Shown here piece by piece: positions 1,300 to 61,245 of a DNA stretch of 64,000 nucleotides. A program made the translations under genes and the position numbers. The DNA is taken from IMG/VR virus record IMGVR_UViG_2576861727_000003; one strand, given 5' to 3'. The notes beneath the pieces are model-generated. The model ran no database searches and was not told the origin of the DNA. It saw only the letters and a list, made by a program, of their open reading frames with translations. The first letter of the stretch is position 1, and each line of letters opens with the position of its first letter. This DNA comes from an uncultured virus (IMG/VR IMGVR_UViG_2576861727_000003). Taxonomy: Duplodnaviria; Heunggongvirae; Uroviricota; Caudoviricetes.

Positions 1300-1327
1300 T
1301 GGCGGAGAAGGAGGGATTCGAACCCTC
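1300..1327 (-). repeat. Prophage att core: duplicated 3' end of a tRNA-Ser
   Basis: Minus strand GAGGGTTCGAATCCCTCCTTCTCCGCCA is a T-arm plus acceptor 3' strand and CCA with no 5' tRNA half; it abuts the phage lysis genes. Confidence 0.8.
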
Positions 1328-43951: not shown

Positions 43952-44063
43952 GTCTCCTTTATTTCCAATTATTCCGTTTATTCTGTTTTTAGGGTCTTGT
44001 TTTTATGCGGATTTCAAGATATCCCAAGAACCATACCGCTATCATTTGCGACGCCTAATGGCA

Positions 44064-44471
44064 TCACTGATAATATTCATAGTCTCGTAAGTTCGCCATT
44101 AGAGTTTCAAACTCTGTATTATACTTATAATTTTTATCCTTGTGTAAACACAAACCGTAATTGAAACGATATCCGCGGCTATTACCTGATATAAGCCTTA
44201 TTGTAGAACCATTAACAAAACATATTTCTGTTAAACTTTCTGTTCCAAGCCACTTCGCCTTATATTGTATATCACATTCGTTAAGTAAATAATTACGCAA
44301 TAACTCAAATATCGCCTTTTTATATACAGTGTCTTGAACAAATATACCTACACGATACCCTTCAAGGTGTATCGCGAGGTCAACAAACTGATAAAATTTT
44401 TTAGTTCTATGGTTCTTGTTAGTTAAGATATCATTAATATAAGCCTCGGATAGAACCGCAGGATATTTCAT
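44064..44471 (-). CDS. Hypothetical protein
   Basis: AAGGAGG RBS; FVNGSTIRL..SRGYR resembles an ATPase-domain fragment. Confidence 0.55.
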   Translation of the reverse strand: MKYPAVLSEAYINDILTNKNHRTKKFYQFVDLAIHLEGYRVGIFVQDTVYKKAIFELLRNYLLNECDIQYKAKWLGTESLTEICFVNGSTIRLISGNSRGYRFNYGLCLHKDKNYKYNTEFETLMANLRDYEYYQ

Positions 44472-44514
44472 TTTTTTGATTCCTCCTTGTTTTTTGATAA
44501 TTACAAATAATTTA

Positions 44515-44602
44515 TGGTTGGGTATCCAAGATTCGAACTTGGGACGGATTTCTCCTTGCTGGGGTCAAAACCCAGTTTGTTAAGCCACTTCAACAATACC
44601 CA
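44515..44602 (-). tRNA. tRNA-Gln(TTG) with an atypical long variable arm
   Basis: TGGGTAT/ATACCCA acceptor plus ACCA; CTGGG-TTTTGAC-CCCAG; CCAAG-TTCGAAT-CTTGG. Confidence 0.8.
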
Positions 44603-44762
44603 ATATAGGTTAGCTGATTATCCTCACAGCCGTTGGTCGTGTTACTTGTAAACCTATACGCCAGAACACAAACTGACTTCTCATAATGAATGAGCTACAC
44701 CTACTCGCCCCTCACTTACGGTCTTATGACTAACCATAAGTTACTAGGCTTTCAGAGATTAG

Positions 44763-44835
44763 CGTTTCCGAAGTGAGTCGAACACTTATCATCCACATTA
44801 ACAGTGTGGCGCTCTTCCAGTTGAGCTACAGAAAC
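44763..44835 (-). tRNA. tRNA-Asn(GTT)
   Basis: GTTTCTG/CGGAAAC acceptor; GCTC/GAGC D stem; CCACA-CTGTTAA-TGTGG; AAGTG-TTCGACT-CACTT; no encoded CCA. Confidence 0.8.
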
Positions 44836-45181
44836 AAATTAGGGGCGTTCACCACGCACAGTGAGCCGCCCTTATAAACCCTCTGATGTGCGTATCTTCG
44901 GATTTGATACCATTAAAAGACCTATCGTGGTACGCATCGTTGAGAGGCGTGATAGGTTCATATTTTCTGCGCTTTTACACTTAGGATAAGGTACGCTAAC
45001 CGACCGCGCCTATTTTAACTTTTAGCTCTCAGCATAGGGAAAGGTGCTACAAGGTAAGTTGACGCTAAAGCACCGACCATTTAAGACATTCTAAAATCAG
45101 ACCCAATACAGGTACTCGGTCTTGAAAACTCATGTCTAATAGTTTTGTTCTGCATTTTTATATTGCTCGTAAAGAGCTGTG

Positions 45182-45457
45182 TTACTTGTTAATAGCTTCC
45201 TTAATAGCCTCAGCCAGACGGAATCTGTAACTATTCTTAGCAGGAACCTTCATCGGTTCGCCAGTCTGAGGATTTCTTGAAACTCTAGGTGCTCTTTCTA
45301 CAGGCTCAATGGTAAATATATTCTGAAATGTAATCTTCTCACCATTAAGCATTGCCTCGCTGATTGTCTCAAGAAAAGCGTCAACTGCAATAGCAGAATT
45401 GTCCAGTGTAAAGTTCGTCTTCTTTGATACCTTTCTAACAATATCGGTCTTGTTCAT
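45182..45457 (-). CDS. hup: HU-family DNA-binding protein
   Basis: MNKTDIV..RVSRNPQTGEPMKVPAK. Confidence 0.9.
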   Translation of the reverse strand: MNKTDIVRKVSKKTNFTLDNSAIAVDAFLETISEAMLNGEKITFQNIFTIEPVERAPRVSRNPQTGEPMKVPAKNSYRFRLAEAIKEAINK

Positions 45458-45479
45458 TTTAATTCCTCCTAGTTTTCAG

Positions 45480-46709
45480 TTAATTCAATATAATCTTATA
45501 AGTTTCTGTATGACCCTCAAACGGGTCGAATCCATATATCATAGACGCTGGGCGGCTTCCAACAGCAAGACTATCAGCATAAGGGTCAGACCCTATAAAT
45601 GATGGTGCTATAAGCGTCTCGCAATCGTGGAAAAGTCCTTCACCTACAGTAATGGATTTTTCAGTGTGATAATGTCCCAAGAACGCAAAGTCATAGTGCG
45701 TTCTGGTCATGTACGAAATGTCTCGCTGGAAGCGTTCAATATTCCGCACATTATGACCGTGTGCCGCAAGAATATTAAAGTTGAATATCTGAAAGCTCAG
45801 ATAGTTCTGATTCTCTGGCGCGAGTTTAACCTCAACTCGGTCATTTTCACTTACCGCCGTTAGAATGTAATTTGATATTACATAAGAAACATCTTCGGCG
45901 GAAAGCGCATTCGCTTTTGACCCGAGTGGTCTTAGCTGGTCGTGGTTTGCATATGGTACATGGTAATATGTAACACGGCAAGCTTGTGATATATCGTTCA
46001 AAAAGCGCGAAATCAGAGTTGCAACATCAACAATTGATTTTACTACTGGCTGTTGATTAAGCTGAATATCAGATAGTCTCAAAATGTTTTGGACGCAATC
46101 TCCTAAGTTGATTATTGTAAGATGAGCCAAATCATTATCCTTTATGAAATCCAGCGTTCTTTCACGTAGTATCGCAAATCTTCTTGCGCACTCTTCAACG
46201 TTATACTCATTGTTCAGACTGCGGAATTCAGCGCCAAGGTGTATGTCTGATATCGTCAATACATACTCTTTGCTGTTGGCTTCACGCGGTTCTACATCCG
46301 CAGGAATGTCCACAGTTGTAAGGGGTATCTGCTCGGCGATATTCTCATAGAATAACTCACGACGAGCCTCTTGTGTATGATATCTACTATATTCCAACTT
46401 AGTAGTTGAAAGCTTACGACGTTCTTTATAAAGAGTTTCTTCCTGTTCCTTGAGGTCAGCGAGGTACTCGTTACCTTTCTGCTTTGCAAAGACATTGTTG
46501 TAAAACCGCTTTCCACTTTGATATTGTTTGCGGAACGCACTCTCGGTTCTCCATTTATCTTTAGGCAGTTCAAGTTGTTCATTGATAGTTGGGGTTACAA
46601 CGTCCCAGTTGGCATACTTACCACTATCAATAAGCTGACCTATTCGCCAAAGATACTCTTCTGTATTCTCGTCGCTACGTTTTACAAGTTCCGCGTTTTT
46701 ACTGACCAA
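45480..46709 (-). CDS. Calcineurin-like metallophosphoesterase
   Basis: SDIHLG, LGD, NHD, HGH, GHYH motifs. Confidence 0.85.
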   Translation of the reverse strand: MVSKNAELVKRSDENTEEYLWRIGQLIDSGKYANWDVVTPTINEQLELPKDKWRTESAFRKQYQSGKRFYNNVFAKQKGNEYLADLKEQEETLYKERRKLSTTKLEYSRYHTQEARRELFYENIAEQIPLTTVDIPADVEPREANSKEYVLTISDIHLGAEFRSLNNEYNVEECARRFAILRERTLDFIKDNDLAHLTIINLGDCVQNILRLSDIQLNQQPVVKSIVDVATLISRFLNDISQACRVTYYHVPYANHDQLRPLGSKANALSAEDVSYVISNYILTAVSENDRVEVKLAPENQNYLSFQIFNFNILAAHGHNVRNIERFQRDISYMTRTHYDFAFLGHYHTEKSITVGEGLFHDCETLIAPSFIGSDPYADSLAVGSRPASMIYGFDPFEGHTETYKIILN

Positions 46710-46878
46710 CGATTTCAGCCTCCCTCATCTTATTAACTTCTCTGAGGACGACAGGACGCTCTTCGCAGTAATACGTCTTTGAATTTGCACCACGCTTTCT
46801 CTTTGAACAAACCTTTACACTTAGGTCTTTAATCTTCTCCCTCAGTGCAAAATATTCCTTCTGTGTAATTGTTATCAT
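46699..46878 (-). CDS. Small basic protein (59 aa, not in the ORF track)
   Basis: MITITQKEYFALREKIKDLSVKVCSKRKRGANSKTYYCEE..; AAGGAG RBS. Confidence 0.6.
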   Translation of the reverse strand: MITITQKEYFALREKIKDLSVKVCSKRKRGANSKTYYCEERPVVLREVNKMREAEIVGQ

Positions 46879-47127
46879 CGTTTTGTTTCTCCTTTTATTC
46901 TTATTTGCTCATTCGGTTGACGATATTGCGCAGGAAAGGTGCGCCGAGCTGAAGCCCTAAAACGCATAAACTAGCTTGTCGGTCGCAAGCCCTTCCAATC
47001 ACCCATCGTCTATAGCCGACGAGATTTCATTTTTCTCTCCATTAAGGGGGTAAATTTGACCCCTTTTTTACGCTTAAAAATCTCGAAAAAGCCCGATAAT
47101 ACTTCGTTTCCGCGATTTTTGAAGTTG

Positions 47128-49851
47128 TCATGATGTGCTCAATTTTTTCGCTATATACCTAATATGTTGGAGTTCGGCTTTACGTTTTCTTGCACATACG
47201 TCACAGCGAACCTTTCTGTTAGCTTTACCTTTAGTGGATATCTCTTTGCCACAATCTATGCAGAACGAGCGCTTCTTCTTGGTTGCTTGTCTGCAAGCCG
47301 TACAACAATACGTCTGGTCTTTACGGGTCTTAATAAACCTCTGACCACAAGTCGGACAAATGGCACTATTCTCGTCGATGTTGTGCCTTAGATTCTGATA
47401 TACAACGTCGCCATATATTGTCCAGAATGCTCGTTTCTTACTGTTAGACTTTTCTGAGAATAAGTAAACAACAAGAGCGTCAACAATCTCCTGCTCGGTA
47501 TAGGGGAGTACAAGCATTTCTTCTCGAACCGCATCAAAAACAGCATGATAGTTTGATAAACCCTCTGTGCCAGTCTGATTAAAGTTAAGGGAGCTAGTAA
47601 GTTTGACGAATTTTTCCGTAACGTCTTTGTTCAACGTTGCGTGACTATTATGTAAAAGCATCTTGTAATTAAATATTCCTTTTATGTTCAGCTTGAAATT
47701 GAGCCTATAACGCTTTGGCGGGAACAGCTTATATATGCGGTTAACCGTAGAATCGTTAAGTGGTTCAATCTGTTTATCGTCTTTGTCCTTAGCGTACTTA
47801 AAGAACGCAGGAACTTTGGATTTTGTGTGGCGAGTGATTATGTCATGTACCCAATCGGGCTCTTCTGGCTTGTATAAGGTCTTTGCGTAATCAATTGTAA
47901 AATTATTCTGCATGCATAACCATTTAACTACGTTCATTTTTTCTTTATTAATTTCTCCGCCATTCCATATTTTTGTAATAGCATTACTTATTTCTCCTAT
48001 ATTGCCCCCTGTGTACGCCGCAATCAGTCCGTCATAAATATGCTCGGGTGTTACTTCAACAGAGCCAGCCTTTGCCATATAGTAATAAAGCGGAACTACA
48101 TCTTTAGTCACGCGCTTCGCTGCATTAGTAAGGACTTTGTTATTAACAATAAGTAGCTTGTCTCCGTCGCAATCGTACTGTAAAATTTTGGAAAGTAGAC
48201 TATCAACACTTACATAAATTGCGTCGGTATTAAACCATTCGGTAGTCACATCATTTATGGTATTGTCTTTAACAAAATGCTCGATAGAGAGATGAGGAGA
48301 TCTCAGACAATCAAGTTCAACGCCTTCAGGATAAAGCCTACAGCTTATCTCGTCTCTGCCAAGTATACCTTTTGGGTTCTCAATCCCCATAAACAAGTTT
48401 TCACATACCGCATAAAAATCAGGCAATACAAACGTATATTTACAATCCAGCTTAAACTTACCCGACCAAAGCTCACCCTCTAAACTCTTCTTTATATCTC
48501 TCAGAGTCGCCTTTGTATATGGGTCAGCCAATAGTTCAGGATAAACGTTAAGACATTTTTGAAATCCTGATTTATACTTTCTCTCGTCATCCGCGCCAAA
48601 TACTTTCAGCATCGTATTCGGGTCGCTACACATTTTAATTATTTCCTCGTCGTTTTTCTGCGCAAGAGCAATTATCTCAGCATCAGTCATATCGTAAAGT
48701 GTCTGTATCATCTGATAATTTATCTTAGCGTCTGGAATATAATCTTCTTCCATATTACATCTACCCGCAGAACAACCATATTTCTTGAAACGGTCTTTAT
48801 AATCCTGCCAACTATCGTACATCTTCCAAAGTTTAAATTGTGATTTCGTCAAAATGATACGAATGTCCTCAGCGATAATATCATGCTTATCGCCATAGAT
48901 ATCAGTGACAATGGGAGAGCAATCGTGTTTCTCAATAAATTTAATGAAGTCAAATGTACCAAGTAATCCTTTAACAAAAGGAAGTCTTACCATGAAGTTC
49001 TTTTTGCTAACAGATGGTAGCATCATGCCGCATCCATCGGTTTGTGCTATTGGCACATCCATTTGCTGACGTGTAATTGAGAAATCTTTATCGCTCATGA
49101 AGTCTACGAATCCATTGACATTATTTTCAAAGTCTTCAACAACAACACAACGGTCTATATCAAACTCTTCCCATAAGTCAGTAGCGCTGTTGCTCAGAGC
49201 GGTATAGGCTAGAAACTTATTAATATTTATTCCGCCTTTAGCGTTAATCTCTTCTATTGTCATACCCGCAGTTAATGTATTCCAATGTTCTTTAAGTAAA
49301 TCCTCTCGTACCGCAACAAACTTCTTTGTTCTTATCTGTCCTGCGCTTGCCGAGAAGAATACATACTTCTTGCCGTTCATCATAAATCCGTTATGTAAAA
49401 TACTCTTAACTACGTCGAAGAAATAAACCTGTACGATAACGATTTCCTCATTAAGTTGTCTTTCTTTCAGCCCGAAGCACCGAGTTAGATTCGAATCGAA
49501 TATTGAAACCTGACGGCGAATTGTCAATGTACTTGGTCTAACCTCTCGGGTTAGCGGTATATTCTTCGCAAGCAAATCTTTAAGCTGTGTCTTGTGGTCG
49601 GCAACATACCGCCGAAGTATGTCGCGACGACGCTTATGGTTAAGTGTGTATTTACAACTGTGTTTGCGTGACTTGCGGGCTATATTCTTATGTAAGAAAC
49701 CCGAGGCTATTTTCTGCTTGCTTGTCCACTCGTCAAGCGTTTTAAGCAAATACTTTGCGCGGATAATCCTGTTCTCTATCGCTTTTTCTTCGTCTGTGTA
49801 GAAACAGGATGTATCGAGTCCGTAAACGTAATGAAGTTTTGATAATGCCAT
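47128..49851 (-). CDS. yonO: YonO-like single-subunit (two-barrel, RdRP-like) RNA polymerase with C-terminal Zn fingers
   Basis: SAGQIR, TDGCGM, RLPFVKG, RSPHL and catalytic DCDGD motifs; lies upstream of the late operon as in SPbeta. Confidence 0.85.
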   Translation of the reverse strand: MALSKLHYVYGLDTSCFYTDEEKAIENRIIRAKYLLKTLDEWTSKQKIASGFLHKNIARKSRKHSCKYTLNHKRRRDILRRYVADHKTQLKDLLAKNIPLTREVRPSTLTIRRQVSIFDSNLTRCFGLKERQLNEEIVIVQVYFFDVVKSILHNGFMMNGKKYVFFSASAGQIRTKKFVAVREDLLKEHWNTLTAGMTIEEINAKGGININKFLAYTALSNSATDLWEEFDIDRCVVVEDFENNVNGFVDFMSDKDFSITRQQMDVPIAQTDGCGMMLPSVSKKNFMVRLPFVKGLLGTFDFIKFIEKHDCSPIVTDIYGDKHDIIAEDIRIILTKSQFKLWKMYDSWQDYKDRFKKYGCSAGRCNMEEDYIPDAKINYQMIQTLYDMTDAEIIALAQKNDEEIIKMCSDPNTMLKVFGADDERKYKSGFQKCLNVYPELLADPYTKATLRDIKKSLEGELWSGKFKLDCKYTFVLPDFYAVCENLFMGIENPKGILGRDEISCRLYPEGVELDCLRSPHLSIEHFVKDNTINDVTTEWFNTDAIYVSVDSLLSKILQYDCDGDKLLIVNNKVLTNAAKRVTKDVVPLYYYMAKAGSVEVTPEHIYDGLIAAYTGGNIGEISNAITKIWNGGEINKEKMNVVKWLCMQNNFTIDYAKTLYKPEEPDWVHDIITRHTKSKVPAFFKYAKDKDDKQIEPLNDSTVNRIYKLFPPKRYRLNFKLNIKGIFNYKMLLHNSHATLNKDVTEKFVKLTSSLNFNQTGTEGLSNYHAVFDAVREEMLVLPYTEQEIVDALVVYLFSEKSNSKKRAFWTIYGDVVYQNLRHNIDENSAICPTCGQRFIKTRKDQTYCCTACRQATKKKRSFCIDCGKEISTKGKANRKVRCDVCARKRKAELQHIRYIAKKLSTS

Positions 49852-49897
49852 GTTTTGTCTCCTTTTCTTTAAGTGCTTGTAAAAGGTTGTATAAAAT

Positions 49898-49969
49898 AAA
49901 AAAAGCACGAGGGTTAGTCGTGCTTAATTTCGGGTATAAAAAATAGCCTATAGCGTAGAACTATAGGCT
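49898..49969 (-). terminator. Two tandem intrinsic terminators immediately upstream of the RNA polymerase gene
   Basis: AGCCTATAG/CTATAGGCT and AAGCACGA/TCGTGCTT stems, each with a minus-strand U-run. Confidence 0.7.
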
Positions 49970-50987
49970 TTATCTGTTTGTGTTATCCTTTCTCATGCGT
50001 CCGCAGACGGCGAGCTTTCACGGTCGCTCCGCAAAGTTCCGAGGGATTGGGATGGATGAGATGCGGCTGAGATTAATTTCGGCGGCATGAACGAATGCAT
50101 CATAATTTATTTGCTATTGGTAATAAGCCGTCCGAGCTACTAAAGAGTAACTCCACGGGCGGAGCCGTGCAAGCACCGTACCGAGCTAGTTATGAGTCAA
50201 ATAGTTGATACTCAAGCTGATAGCCATTAGAGAAAGAATTAAATATAATTCGTATTGTGAGGGGTGCTGCGTTCCGTCGAGCGTATGAAACATACGTCAC
50301 GGTATCACGAACAACAAGGGTCGTTCAGGGTCAACTATGGCTACGACCCTTGAAATATAAGGGAGAAACCTTAACGAAGAAGCGAGGCTTAGGTATAAAG
50401 GGGCTCCGCCCCTTTATAGCGTCTTTTCTTTGATATGCTTAATCCCCGAGTAACGTGTATCTTGTTTCCTTGTAGCCTTCCAGTCTAGCCCCGCTCCGCA
50501 CTCACTCCTACTTGTCTCCCTAGACTGTCGGCACTCGTACAGCTCGTCTTTATTCCTAAGCTTCCTCTTCACCCTTGCTCCCGCTGTACTCGTAAGTTTT
50601 ATTATTCTCCTACTTGTAACCTGTCGCTTGCAACGTGTCTCCGCGAGAGTCTAAATCGACTCCCGAAAATCTCTTCCATTAAGGGGCTAAAAATTCAGCT
50701 TGTTTTTAGAAGGAAAGTCCGAAATTGCGACGTTTGAAACACGTTGAAGTTATCATGATGTGCTCAAAAAAAGCCCGACTTATAAGCCGAGCTTGAGATA
50801 TGTAAGGTCTCTAAGAATAGAGAACTCGTGAACGAAAAATCGAGGGTAAACGTAGGTGGCACGGGCGATTTCGCGGATTTTGGACATTCAAAATTTGTCG
50901 AGGCAAATTTGCGTAATGAAAGACCAAAACGCCGATAACTCTAATAATTTTGTGTTTTTGACAAAATTCAAAATTTGTCGAGCTATA

Positions 50988-51878
50988 TTATTTAGCTTTT
51001 GCAAATAATCCAAGTACTTCAACTTTATGATAATCACTTCCAGAATAAAGAATGTGTGGATTAATATAAGCTCTTGTTAATTCTTTATAATCTTGAGGAG
51101 TTATAAAGGTTACAAAAAATTCTTTATGCCCGTGATATTCAAAAGTTAAGCGTCGATAGATATTCATAAGTCTACTTCTTTGAGTCGTGTCATAACTAAG
51201 AAGATTGCATATTTCATCAATCAGTAATGGCTGTATTTTTTCTAGTTCGGTTTCATCTGGATTTTTACAAATAATATTGTATTCGGTATTGATATAAGGT
51301 AATAATTGAAATATATATCCTAAGTACCTATGCTTACTAACGGGAATTGCTTTATATATACATCGCACGCCTTCAAGGTAGAATTTCTTATATAACTCGT
51401 CAGATTTTGCGATGTGTCCTCTGATGATATACGGTGACATTAACTTCAAACCATCTTCTCCGCTGTCAAGAATATATACGTTACTCACTTCTTTCCAAAA
51501 GTTAAAGGTTGTACCTGTAGACAATCCTAACACTTCTTTTAAATCCGACTTCTTCATCTTCTTGCGTTCCGTCAACATAAACTCATTATTATAATTGAGG
51601 TATGTGCAAAGATATATAAGCCGAGCAGCGCTCTCCGCTGAGATATTTCCGAACCTATGCTCTCGCATCACAAAGTAGAAATACCCAAGTTCGTCTTGCA
51701 TCTTGCGGCGTATCTCTCTTTTAATCTGCCGCTCTTTCAATTCGTCGTAGGCTTCCTGTTGCTTTGGCGTTATCACTCTGCTACCGATAGGAATTATCAC
51801 CGCCTTAGCTTCCGTAACTTTGCCCGTGTCTTCATCCACCGCCAAGTTGCTTTTTGTTTCATCTAAAAACTTGTACAT
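50988..51878 (-). CDS. RepL-like / winged-HTH DNA-binding protein
   Basis: RLIYLCTYLNYNN..LKEVLGLS HTH and YINPHILYSG; start MYKFLD after GGAGG. Confidence 0.55.
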   Translation of the reverse strand: MYKFLDETKSNLAVDEDTGKVTEAKAVIIPIGSRVITPKQQEAYDELKERQIKREIRRKMQDELGYFYFVMREHRFGNISAESAARLIYLCTYLNYNNEFMLTERKKMKKSDLKEVLGLSTGTTFNFWKEVSNVYILDSGEDGLKLMSPYIIRGHIAKSDELYKKFYLEGVRCIYKAIPVSKHRYLGYIFQLLPYINTEYNIICKNPDETELEKIQPLLIDEICNLLSYDTTQRSRLMNIYRRLTFEYHGHKEFFVTFITPQDYKELTRAYINPHILYSGSDYHKVEVLGLFAKAK

Positions 51879-52071
51879 AAATCCTCCTGATAATATTTTT
51901 TCTCCCACAAGCGGGGTGAAAATGAGCCCCGCCGAGTCGCGACGTTCGTTGGCTGACGGGGCTATCATTTGGCGATGAATTCACCGAAGAGGGACAATTT
52001 GTACCCTCGATATTCAGTTGTCAAGTTTCATTGTCTCCTGAGCAGAGCTGATAGTTTCTATCTGTTAGTTA

Positions 52072-52821
52072 TCAGTCTGCGAAAATTGTCTGTATCTCGT
52101 TGTAATACTTATCTTTGTTCTCGCGGGTGATACCGCAGTATCTCAGCGTAGTTCTCGAAGACGAGTGGTTCATCATGTCCTGGATAACCGCGAGAGCCTC
52201 TGTATCATTCGGGTGGAGTTTGAGATTCCAGTATCCGAATGTCTTACGCATCGAATGAGCGCCGATATGCTCTTCAAAGCCGAGTTCTGTGTTTAGCTTG
52301 TGCAGGATGCGGTAGAGCTGGCTTTCGTCCATTTTACCCTTGCGCTCAGAAAGAATGAGATAGTCGTCGAAGTTCACCGTGTTAAGGGTTGCAATGTAGT
52401 CGAGAATCGCTTTCTTAGCGGTGTCGTTAATGCGCGGCTGATTAGTCTTGCGTGTCTTACTTTCGATACACCAGATGTAATCCTTAACAGTTCCGTCTTC
52501 GTTAAGTACATCTCCAATTCTCAGGCTCAGCAAGTCTCCGCCACGAATACCGACGGATATGCCGAGGGTGAACAGCATATAGTTACGAGCCCGATGCCAC
52601 TTAGTTTTACCTTTGGTGCGGTAGAATTCCTGTGCCATCTGTATGTGTTCAAGTGTACGTATAGGCTCGTCTTCCTGTGCCTTCTTGATTCCGCGAGCAT
52701 TAACCGTCGAGGTAGAGCGGCGAGCGCGCTGTACTGTAATGTCAATTGTCTCGTGCGATTCGATAGCATTGTTTCCAATGGTCTCGGTACGGGTGATTTC
52801 GATAATGTTTGCTTTTGTCAT
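52072..52821 (-). CDS. Tyrosine recombinase (catalytic domain only)
   Basis: GIRGGDLL, HSMRKTFG, HSSSRTTLRY. Confidence 0.88.
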   Translation of the reverse strand: MTKANIIEITRTETIGNNAIESHETIDITVQRARRSTSTVNARGIKKAQEDEPIRTLEHIQMAQEFYRTKGKTKWHRARNYMLFTLGISVGIRGGDLLSLRIGDVLNEDGTVKDYIWCIESKTRKTNQPRINDTAKKAILDYIATLNTVNFDDYLILSERKGKMDESQLYRILHKLNTELGFEEHIGAHSMRKTFGYWNLKLHPNDTEALAVIQDMMNHSSSRTTLRYCGITRENKDKYYNEIQTIFAD

Positions 52822-52922
52822 ATTTTCGTCCTCCTTTAGTCCTTTGGTCATACTGTACCATACCTTGCGGAAAATTATTGAGGGCTTTTTTTGTTTGACC
52901 GCCCTCCGTTTTCTGTATATAT

Positions 52923-52951
52923 AGTATAGCATAAAAGCGGCGGCAAGTCAA
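52923..52951 (-). promoter_or_regulatory. Sigma-A promoter, leftward
   Basis: TTGACT-17-TATACT with extended TG. Confidence 0.7.
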
Positions 52952-53464
52952 GGTGGAGTTCATACTATACTATACCTTTGACGTGATGGATTTGGCGTGA
53001 GATGGACGGAGAGGGGCGAAAGCGGCGAGGGAAAATTGAGGTGGCTGTGGGATGTGAGGGGGATTAGAACGCCTCAAATCAAAGATTTTCGGCGGTACGC
53101 GGGGATTCTGAGGCATACTACAAGGCAAAATCCAAGTGTTCATAGAAACTTTACAAATGGGTTTTTGAGAGGGTAAAAATGTGGACGGGAAAATTAGCTT
53201 GCAAGTAGAATGTTTGCAAGTGGGGTGGGGGATGAGGGGGATTGGGGGTGGATTAAATAGGGAGATGCGGTGGATGTTGAGGTGACTGTAGGAGCCTGAG
53301 AGGTCGGATCTTCGGCGGTTTTCCGAACCTATCCCCCCTCAAAGTAACAAAAACTAGCACTGAAATGACTTGCAAGGGAATGTAAAAAGCTTGCAAGTTA
53401 GGGCTTGCAAACCTGCTTTCCTTCCTTTTTAAAAAGCTTTTGGTCATTTTCCAATATTTACGAC

Positions 53465-57546: not shown

Positions 57547-57621
57547 GCTCCCGTGGCGAAATTGGCAAACGCAGTGTATTTAAGGTACATACAACTATGG
57601 GTTCGAATCCCATCGGGAGTA
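57547..57621 (+). tRNA. tRNA-Leu(TAA) lacking the long variable arm
   Basis: GCTCCCG/CGGGAGT plus A73; GTGTA-TTTAAGG-TACAT; ATGGG-TTCGAAT-CCCAT. Confidence 0.78.
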
Positions 57622-57684
57622 TCCTCTTCTATGACATTATACCTCCTTAATTATGGCGGCGTGGAAATTTCTGCGCCGTCTTTT

Positions 57685-57796
57685 GTGCCATTAGCTCAAT
57701 CGGTTAGAGCGCGTATTGTGTCTTGTAGAAGACACTTACAGCAGATTTATTTGCTATTCCAAAGCCGAGATGTGGGTTCGAGCCCCACATGGCGCA
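57685..57796 (+). ncRNA. tRNA-like RNA with an expanded anticodon region
   Basis: Intact acceptor GTGCCAT/ATGGCGC, D arm GCTC/GAGC, T arm GTGGG-TTCGAGC-CCCAC; about 60 nt lie between D and T arms. Confidence 0.7.
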
Positions 57797-60870: not shown

Positions 60871-61245
60871 ATGAATTTTTCAGATAAACTAATTCGATTG
60901 CGTAAAGCATTCGGATACACAAAGAAGTATGTAGCTGAAAGTGTCGGCGTATCATGTACCGCTATAGCGGCATATGAGGATGGCAAAACTGCACCTCAGT
61001 ACAAAATAATCTATAAGGGAATCGCGAATCTGTTCGGTGTTCCGTTAGAATTTCTAATGGTAGAAAAACCTCATGATGAGGTAGTTCTGGCGAGTATTAC
61101 AAAACGGCAAACACGACTTCGTATAAATGCGATATCGTGCGATATCGACCGCATTTGTGCAGAAATTCGTGGACTGAGAAAAATAGAGCGTCTTACCGCA
61201 GAGGATGCGCTAAAAATAATCGGGGCGGTGACTGGAAATGAGTAA
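60871..61245 (+). CDS. XRE-family HTH transcriptional regulator
   Basis: LIRLRKAFGYTKKYVAESVGVS..IAAYEDGKTAP. Confidence 0.85.
   Translation: MNFSDKLIRLRKAFGYTKKYVAESVGVSCTAIAAYEDGKTAPQYKIIYKGIANLFGVPLEFLMVEKPHDEVVLASITKRQTRLRINAISCDIDRICAEIRGLRKIERLTAEDALKIIGAVTGNE

Follow-up and report, generated by a model that had tools for sequence, protein, structure and literature searches.

Where does a YonO-type RNA polymerase start late transcription? For YonO of phage SPbeta a late start, P_YonO, has been placed between yonN and yonK in a primer-bounded fragment (Forrest et al. 2017, PMC5467207). In the authors' reply to reviewers, YonO alone is described as giving weak, partly non-specific initiation with no open complex, and as perhaps requiring a further factor (PMC5467207). 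The promoter sequence is not defined there; promoter recognition was left open, and the reviewers named it the outstanding question (PMC5467207). In the open-access papers searched, we found no definition of a YonO promoter. The window analysed here, that is, the whole 64-kb stretch of phage DNA, contains a YonO-like gene bracketed by two copies of a repeat. Are these copies promoter or activator sites of the phage polymerase, as an earlier note had suggested? Or are they sites of recombination?

The gene between the copies is the following.

47128..49908, minus strand: YonO-like single-subunit two-barrel RNA polymerase (ORF of 926 aa, likely start 49851)

Its product is homologous to SPbeta YonO (42.8% identity over 92% of the query length), matches PF05183, has the catalytic DxDGD triad as DCDGD at residue 560 and carries C-terminal CxxC motifs. 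The structure model (pTM 0.79) has a two-barrel fold, with RDR2, QDE-1 and gp64 as its nearest neighbours. By its position, the polymerase gene stands at the head of the late gene cluster; minus-strand ORFs from 46878 down to 1567 include terminase, portal, tape measure and lysin.

The repeats described in the earlier note are present. The 12-mer TCCATTAAGGGG occurs at 47038-47049 and 50675-50686, and a 24-mer, with one mismatch between its copies, at 47119-47142 and 50744-50767; start-to-start distances are 81 nt in copy 1 and 69 nt in copy 2, and one 24-mer does overlap the polymerase stop codon (47128-47130). With up to 3 mismatches the 24-mer has 2 matches in the window, and none of 100 shuffles contains any. 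Taken by itself, the 12-mer is weak when 2 mismatches are tolerated (5 matches, 3.9 expected). Overlooked in the earlier note was a palindrome conserved across the family, which sits between 12-mer and 24-mer in both copies. Judged by sequence comparison, the earlier note had picked up lineage-specific parts of a family-wide element, laid out as follows.

47036..47049, minus strand: core box of copy 1, CCCCTTAATGGAGA (family consensus CTnTAAGGGRA)
47087..47109, no strand: proximal palindrome of copy 1, centred 57 bp upstream of the box's first G
47119..47142, no strand: distal 24-mer of copy 1, an imperfect palindrome, lineage-specific and matching copy 2 in the same genome
50673..50686, minus strand: core box of copy 2, CCCCTTAATGGAAG, first G at 50678
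50714..50736, no strand: proximal palindrome of copy 2, centred 47 bp upstream of the box's first G
50744..50767, no strand: distal 24-mer of copy 2, replaced or diverged in the relatives L024 and X1

In copy 1 transcription would start at or near the G run, whose first G is 47041. The proximal palindrome, enclosed by a longer inverted repeat (about 47076-47120), is a putative binding site of a dimeric protein. The palindrome-to-G spacing of copy 2 is one helical turn shorter than that of copy 1, and in the relative L024 copy 2 has 57 bp; its core box is retained in L024, L165 and the DNA contig of run X1.

The earlier note had proposed looking for motif conservation around yonO homologs, and across 130 dereplicated clusters of relatives with a YonO-like gene the element proved to be family-wide. 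The CTnTAAGGGRA box lies behind the gene in 108 of 130 clusters (at least 8 bits, within 200 nt), with 22 below the cut-off, and was recovered de novo with a log-likelihood of 348, against at most 42 in 8 shuffled-set runs. Upstream of the box is a palindrome of the AAACCCTTG-n5-CAAGGGTTT type, its centre about 39, 48 or 58 bp away and so in helical phase. The box-bearing clusters have 123 palindrome matches upstream of the box versus 21 downstream, and 69 best offsets show a 10-bp period (R 0.65, reached by 0 of 5000 nulls). No peak emerged from a palindrome profile made without a motif model, which was too coarse; the motif model gave one. In two-fold cross-validation the composite of palindrome and box scored highest at 79 of the 130 held-out loci versus 1.6 expected, and still at 32 with out-of-phase spacings. 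The order is distal site, proximal palindrome and TAAGGG-type box, oriented into the late operon and directly behind the polymerase module. The element is conserved and oriented, heads the operon and follows the polymerase lineage, as a promoter of the phage polymerase should.

With the cluster under study left out of the model, the two copies rank 1 and 2 among composite sites in the 64 kb. A third match, at 53338, was rejected: there the G run is followed by C-rich DNA, resembling the SPbeta yonR-yonP packaging region. Under the same exclusion the composite site ranks 1 in SPbeta (134 kb), G004 and G005, 3 in G007 and 5 in G006, and is missed in G008. In a distant clade with two-gene polymerases, outside the training set, the palindrome follows directly after the module, at rank 1 in 12 of 15 clusters; it was found in 3 of 6 further records. 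The box of this clade differs and stands at about -41 or -50. TR-TP1 and 0305phi8-36 showed no element after their polymerase genes. Palindromes of this type also turn up at a distance from the polymerase gene: at a tRNA-end fragment in the window (1300-1324), upstream of SPbeta yonX, and in 3 of 4 matches of a reverse pattern scan.

Several other identities were discarded. The box is no Shine-Dalgarno sequence, as an ORF start codon lies 7-16 nt after the G run in 2 of 108 cases. The N4 virion-polymerase promoter is a short hairpin whose loop has 3 nt and whose distance from the start is fixed; here a 23-bp imperfect palindrome stands at three distances one turn apart. Nor is the element the 15-bp MrpR operator, SPBRE; that motif, when rebuilt from the 10 promoter regions listed in PMC10516654, was a different one, and its score in the yonO-yonN interval was negative.

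We consider the element probably to be the late promoter of YonO-type polymerases, its box read by the phage polymerase and its palindrome by a putative dimeric helper. Such a protein would recognise the palindrome or palindromes in duplex form and, sitting on one side of the helix, help the polymerase to melt the A/T part of the box; initiation would then occur at the G run or close to it. Possible helpers are phage proteins of the tyrosine-recombinase fold, the winged-helix partner in the two-gene clades, or a host factor. Copy 1 would start the late transcript. Of the reading in the earlier note, the part that places a promoter or activator site where the late operon begins is supported by conservation across the family, by helical phasing and, weakly, by the ends of RNA contigs; the lineage-specific 24-mer is not the conserved part.

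These RNA contigs come from a close relative in three rumen runs of one study, and they carry no strand or start information.

44865..47030, minus strand (taken from the genes, not the contigs): stretch covered by RNA contigs, with a leader, a 59-aa ORF, a YonJ-like nuclease, HU and an abiF motif, ending before tRNA-Asn

The contigs stop 11-35 nt short of the downstream (copy 1) box, at 47006, 47018 and 47030, with no loose end, and a DNA contig continues past. Cover is absent over 44000-44860 and also over the polymerase gene and the block behind copy 2, where its absence proves nothing. The ends fit transcription by the host polymerase as well. Could the element then be a host-polymerase promoter, switched by a phage activator or anti-sigma-like factor, with YonO starting downstream at the published site or taking over later? 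Bacterial activators sit at about such offsets upstream of promoters as the -39, -48 and -58 seen here, a weak sigma-70-like site lies at 47123-47096, and RNA contigs cover the HU and nuclease genes and none the polymerase gene. The published YonO-dependent start also lies elsewhere (PMC5467207). We nevertheless think this unlikely: a sigma-70-like -10/-35 pair has no fixed position among the 108 sites (matches are spread out, with no offset shared by more than 2 of 108, and a plain sigma-70 promoter was rejected), and the palindrome stays constant while the box switches with the polymerase clade.

Contig ends near the box would also suit a processed end. The element might act as RNA, the palindrome ending or pausing the polymerase-gene transcript and the box being a processing site for a stable late 5' end; in several relatives the palindrome grows into a hairpin flanked by runs of A and T, and a stem-loop is annotated after yonO in SPbeta. 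However, the 10-bp periodic spacing points to double-stranded DNA, a terminator scan of the minus strand detected none at copy 1, and the leader that follows copy 1 has no more stable fold than shuffled sequences (z -0.86), so that this reading is highly improbable.

What, then, is copy 2? Its surroundings are these.

49903..50677, minus strand: non-coding block of about 770 nt behind copy 2, with two terminator-like hairpins at its end
49945-49969 and 49903-49925, minus strand: these two hairpins, from the terminator scan
50771..50794, minus strand: terminator-like hairpin with a T run, immediately preceding copy 2 (terminator scan)
about 50886-50902 and about 50966-50982: two 16-nt direct repeats after the Rep-like gene, read from the sequence
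50988..51968, minus strand: Rep-initiator-like double winged-helix protein, a weak assignment (Atlas RepL/HTH clusters; Foldseek Pi/RepE/TrfA, E about 0.05)

The first 280 nt of the block are 67% purine, in the top 0.1% of the window. Rfam gave no match to the block at gathering score, and the only match of a pattern scan was in the relative known beforehand. The upstream copy is confined to this lineage: in all remaining clusters of the 130, the 3 kb upstream of the gene lack a composite site. Because the copy belongs to a single lineage, and because 770 non-coding bases and two terminator hairpins come after it, the positive autoregulation and the excision of a 3.6-kb polymerase module envisaged in the earlier note are poorly supported. 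In L165, moreover, an extra ORF lies between the upstream copy and the polymerase gene, which further weakens autoregulation. Under the late-promoter reading, copy 2 would be a lineage-specific duplicate, most likely starting the 770-nt block beside the Rep-like gene; its product may be a small RNA or serve a transcription-assisted origin, rather than mainly polymerase gene expression.

Alternatively, one of the phage tyrosine recombinases might use the palindromes as core sites, which would make the element a place of resolution or recombination, and the two copies could then serve to excise the 3.6-kb module. Such core sites are inverted arms around a short centre, and by analogy the arms around a 5-7-nt centre here would fit that geometry. 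Both recombinase-family ORFs of the phage retain R-K-HxxR-H-Y by inspection, similar palindromes flank the tRNA-end fragment at 1300-1324, and the copies match each other in patches within a genome, which suggests past recombination between them. Against this, the bracketing repeats are not kept in relatives: one of at least 20 nt occurs in 1 of 119 clusters, and the upstream 24-mer match is gone in two close relatives, L024 and X1. The spacers of the copies also differ by 10-12 bp, and an asymmetric box always aimed into the late operon is left unexplained. A joint between the copies was absent from the contigs of one DNA run; contigs drop rare forms, so this is not evidence of absence. On balance we regard a recombinase site as quite improbable.

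Finally, the element could be part of a replication or packaging signal and no promoter at all. Copy 2 lies behind the Rep-like gene and short direct repeats, and the replication operon of L245 is preceded by paired palindromes around A/T-rich DNA. Yet the family-wide copy follows the polymerase module regardless of a nearby Rep-like gene (4 of 130), and SPbeta packaging does not start behind yonO but in the yonR-yonP interval. Of 11 loci with the Rep-like gene, 10 show no copy of the element behind that gene. We give this explanation hardly any credence.

How does a late promoter directly behind the polymerase gene agree with SPbeta? There the top composite site of the whole genome falls between yonO and yonN, with its G run near 61230 on the minus strand of NC_001884. 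The published start fragment lies 681-872 nt downstream of this element, so the two do not coincide, and it has only a weak box (6.7 bits) without a phased palindrome. In the texts consulted we found no statement on the dependence of yonN on YonO. BUCT082 has a fragment 94% identical to the published start fragment, yet its polymerase is only 25% identical to YonO.

One reading, which we put forward tentatively and with less than even confidence, would join these observations. YonO-type polymerases, single-chain relatives of cellular RNA polymerase, would start at a TAAGGG-type box only with a dimeric factor phased upstream; the yonO-yonN site would be the primary SPbeta late promoter and the published start a secondary start or a processed end. 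The duplicated copy in the window would drive a purine-rich non-coding transcript beside the Rep-like gene, possibly at a transcription-primed origin. If true, this reading would account for the lack of an open complex with purified YonO.

The element supplies exact coordinates and mutations with which promoter recognition by YonO can be tested in B. subtilis 168. If it is a late promoter, it would illustrate how a minimal two-barrel polymerase can initiate specifically with no sigma factor. It would also mark where early genes give way to late ones across a large Firmicutes phage family, and it might be developed into an orthogonal polymerase-promoter pair.

Among known systems, P_YonO shares the polymerase family, the order of polymerase, HU, YonJ-like nuclease and late cluster, and one dominant site heading the late genes, but differs in the downstream position of its start and in having no sequence given (PMC5467207). 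For the polymerases of Thermus phage P23-45, phage-specific motifs have been assigned, with 14 and 7 mapped starts sharing single motifs (PMC10770324). The likeness is that motifs are assigned to two-barrel single-subunit polymerases, gp64 being a structural neighbour of the model here; in contrast, the present element has 1-2 sites per genome, a separate phased palindrome and a predicted start. T7-type class III promoters have an A/T-rich melting stretch, then a G run and purines, as here; unlike the element, they occur in many copies per genome, without an upstream phased palindrome, and serve an unrelated polymerase fold. CRP class I and II promoters place a palindromic activator site in helical-turn steps from the core element. 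Whereas those sigma-70 promoters have a fixed -10/-35 pair, the core here has none and differs between polymerase clades, but in both the palindrome is set one helical turn at a time from the core.

The 12-mer and 24-mer direct repeats described in the earlier note both lie at the positions claimed for them, and they form parts of a larger element, a TAAGGG-type box with a palindrome upstream.

47036-47142, copy 1 of the element, behind the polymerase gene (first G of the box at 47041)
47128..49908 (-), YonO-like RNA polymerase gene
50673-50767, copy 2 of the element, upstream of the gene (first G of the box at 50678)

The 24-mer is far above chance, with 2 matches in the window and 0 in each of 100 shuffles; the 12-mer, present at both places, is not when mismatches are allowed. 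The gene between the repeats is indeed YonO-like, with 42.8% identity to YonO of the B. subtilis prophage SPbeta and DCDGD at 560. By fold comparison, the predicted structure is nearest to RDR2, QDE-1 and P23-45 gp64; no YonO structure is among the matches listed. Terminase, portal, tape measure and lysin are among the genes on the minus strand between 46878 and 1567.

Is the element a property of the family? We took the best 80 of 558 viral, the best 80 of 136 genome and the best 80 of at least 494 metagenome loci, with four earlier loci. A near-complete polymerase gene in 230 of the 244 gave 130 clusters, mostly of 37–56% protein identity. A motif search of the 320 nt after the stop codon recovered CTnTAAGGGRA (log-likelihood 348 vs at most 42 in shuffled sets), which reaches at least 8 bits no more than 200 nt from the stop in 108 of the 130 clusters and does not in the other 22. 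A second search, now in the 110 nt preceding the box, returned an imperfect palindrome of AAACCCTTG-n5-CAAGGGTTT type, scoring 260–303 vs at most 47 in shuffled sets and 120 in the downstream control; around the box there are 123 matches upstream vs 21 downstream. Measured from the first G of the box, its centre is at about -39, -48 or -58, and a period of 10 bp is seen in the 69 best offsets (R 0.65; reached by 0 of 5000 nulls). A further palindrome, near -90 to -116, is present in many loci. The box was rejected as a ribosome-binding site, which fits in 2 of 108 cases. No sigma-70 pair has a fixed place relative to the box in the 108 box-bearing clusters, and a host-polymerase promoter served by a phage activator is an unlikely reading.

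With motifs trained on the same sites that were scored, 74 of 130 clusters have a composite score of at least 18 within the 250 nt that follow the stop. The opposite strand has none in this stretch, and the remaining parts of the loci have 14 on the sense strand. When half of the clusters served to relearn both motifs, the locus-wide best site fell directly behind the stop in 79 of 130 held-out loci vs 1.6 expected (32 with out-of-phase spacings, 76 with an unrestricted range), the folds being random, so that kin are shared across them, and the in-phase offsets coming from the full set. With its own cluster left out, copy 1 ranks first in the window and copy 2 second; the site is first in SPbeta and in genomes G004 and G005, third in G007 and fifth in G006, and is missed in G008. 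A reverse pattern scan gave four matches, one behind a YonO gene and three before replication genes of related phages, which speaks against full specificity for YonO loci. That the element is a replication or packaging signal is highly improbable; as a packaging start it was rejected by comparison with the available part of 10.1101/2021.11.22.469490. In a distant-clade phage, L245:3501-3640 holds a pair of palindromes of the element's type upstream of a replication operon, with A/T-rich DNA between them and a distance of about 115 bp. The divergent region at 53190-53460 of the window resembles the SPbeta packaging region; TTGCAAG recurs in it several times, and a G run there leads into C-rich DNA.

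A distant polymerase clade (~25% identity) is encoded with a partner of 200–280 aa carrying the CxxC motif found at the C terminus of YonO itself. Here the palindrome lies behind the stop of the partner gene and ranks first in the locus in 12 of 15 clusters, drawn from the 35 of 80 loci where our script detected the partner; the same holds for 3 of 6 records analysed before these, two of which fall within the 15 clusters. The box differs, being TTTTCTT..ATGTATAG-like by eye, with the palindrome at about -41 or -50. The box therefore goes with the polymerase clade, and both clades share the palindrome. The partner genes L295:5476-6240, L250:5442-6278 and L249:5273-5995 encode a probable winged helix and CxxC; this partner is a candidate specificity factor.

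In SPbeta, Forrest et al. placed the YonO-dependent start before yonK, the promoter being left undefined in the accessible text of PMC5467207. The fragment bounded by primers in that text lies 681–872 nt downstream of the SPbeta element; it has only a weak box, and the phased palindrome is absent from it. It is 94% identical in BUCT082, whose polymerase belongs to the distant clade: this SPbeta-like phage, in which the polymerase module is swapped, retains the published-start region at L250 6855-7503. Either the published SPbeta end is a secondary or processed one, or there is another type of start for YonO, or the element serves another enzyme. The available parts of PMC8270828, PMC10770324 and PMC11534266 hold no definition of a YonO promoter. 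An MrpR operator was rejected by comparison with the portion available of PMC10516654.

Copy 2 is limited to the lineage of the window, the L024 group, L165 and rumen DNA run X1. The palindrome is at -57 in copy 1 vs -47 in copy 2, one helical turn apart, and at -57 in both copies of L024. The 24-mer is the distal, lineage-specific part of the element. Identity between copies within a genome is patchy: it covers the 24-mer in the window, 17 nt that match the end of its own polymerase gene in L165, and a stretch adjoining the box in L024. This fits gene conversion between copies or co-evolution with one reader. An upstream match of at least 20 nt to the post-stop region occurs in only 1 of 119 clusters, and a recombinase site, also proposed in the earlier note, seems quite unlikely.

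Upstream of copy 2 lie a Rep-initiator-like gene (weak match), two short direct repeats and a terminator-like hairpin. Copy 2 is followed by 770 non-coding bases, conserved in L024 and partly in L165, with a purine-rich start and two terminator-like hairpins at the end, folding slightly better than shuffles (z -3.0, 20 shuffles). Positive autoregulation from copy 2 would require read-through of both hairpins; it is still conceivable because YonO shows less pausing than the E. coli enzyme, according to the accessible text of PMC5467207. In L024 an insertion of ~330 nt splits the polymerase gene near codon 580, and in X1 one of 1620 nt does so at another place (window 49174-49225); both insertions are probably introns. 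Other features observed in the window are as follows.

52072-52932 (-), tyrosine recombinase, and 50988-51968 (-), Rep-like gene; 5 of the 11 viral loci with the latter hold both
1300-1324 (-), tRNA 3'-end-like fragment ending in CCA, which we take to be of serine type; candidate attachment core
66-88, 126-148, 1246-1268 and 1341-1363, palindromes of the element's type flanking that fragment
about 644-1217, run of N
57547-57796 (+), early region, tRNA-Leu and a second tRNA-like match

Three bovine-gut metatranscriptome runs and one DNA run were mapped to 44000-53000. A close relative is represented by RNA contigs that span 44865-47030. They stop at 47006, 47018 and 47030, leaving 35, 23 and 11 nt to the first G of copy 1, and have no loose end; they are strandless, carry no start information and come from one study, under our two-study bar for even a weak hint. 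The DNA contig continues through copy 1 where they end. A weak host-type promoter site at 47123-47096, which would predict an end near 47089, may be their source. In the three runs, RNA contigs are absent from the polymerase gene, from 44000-44860 and from the block that follows copy 2. The gap after HU, 44515-44956 (-), holds tRNA-Gln, tRNA-Asn and an abiF RNA motif; the RNA contigs end just short of tRNA-Asn.

The earlier note read the repeats as promoter or activator sites for the phage polymerase. The analysis shows the position, orientation, phasing and clade dependence of the element, which agree with this; we infer binding, a start and dependence on YonO. The element is probably a promoter, in which the phage polymerase would read and melt the box and a dimer on the same face of the helix would bind the palindrome. 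An RNA terminator or processing signal is a very unlikely reading. With the element, the nature of the YonO promoter, a question left open in print, becomes testable in a laboratory strain, where the published start lies elsewhere and disagrees. The T7, N4, CRP and lambda-type features used for comparison are general background. By the tests made, the element does not belong to the sigma-70, T7, N4-hairpin or SPBRE families; its manner of working would be like that of activator-dependent promoters.
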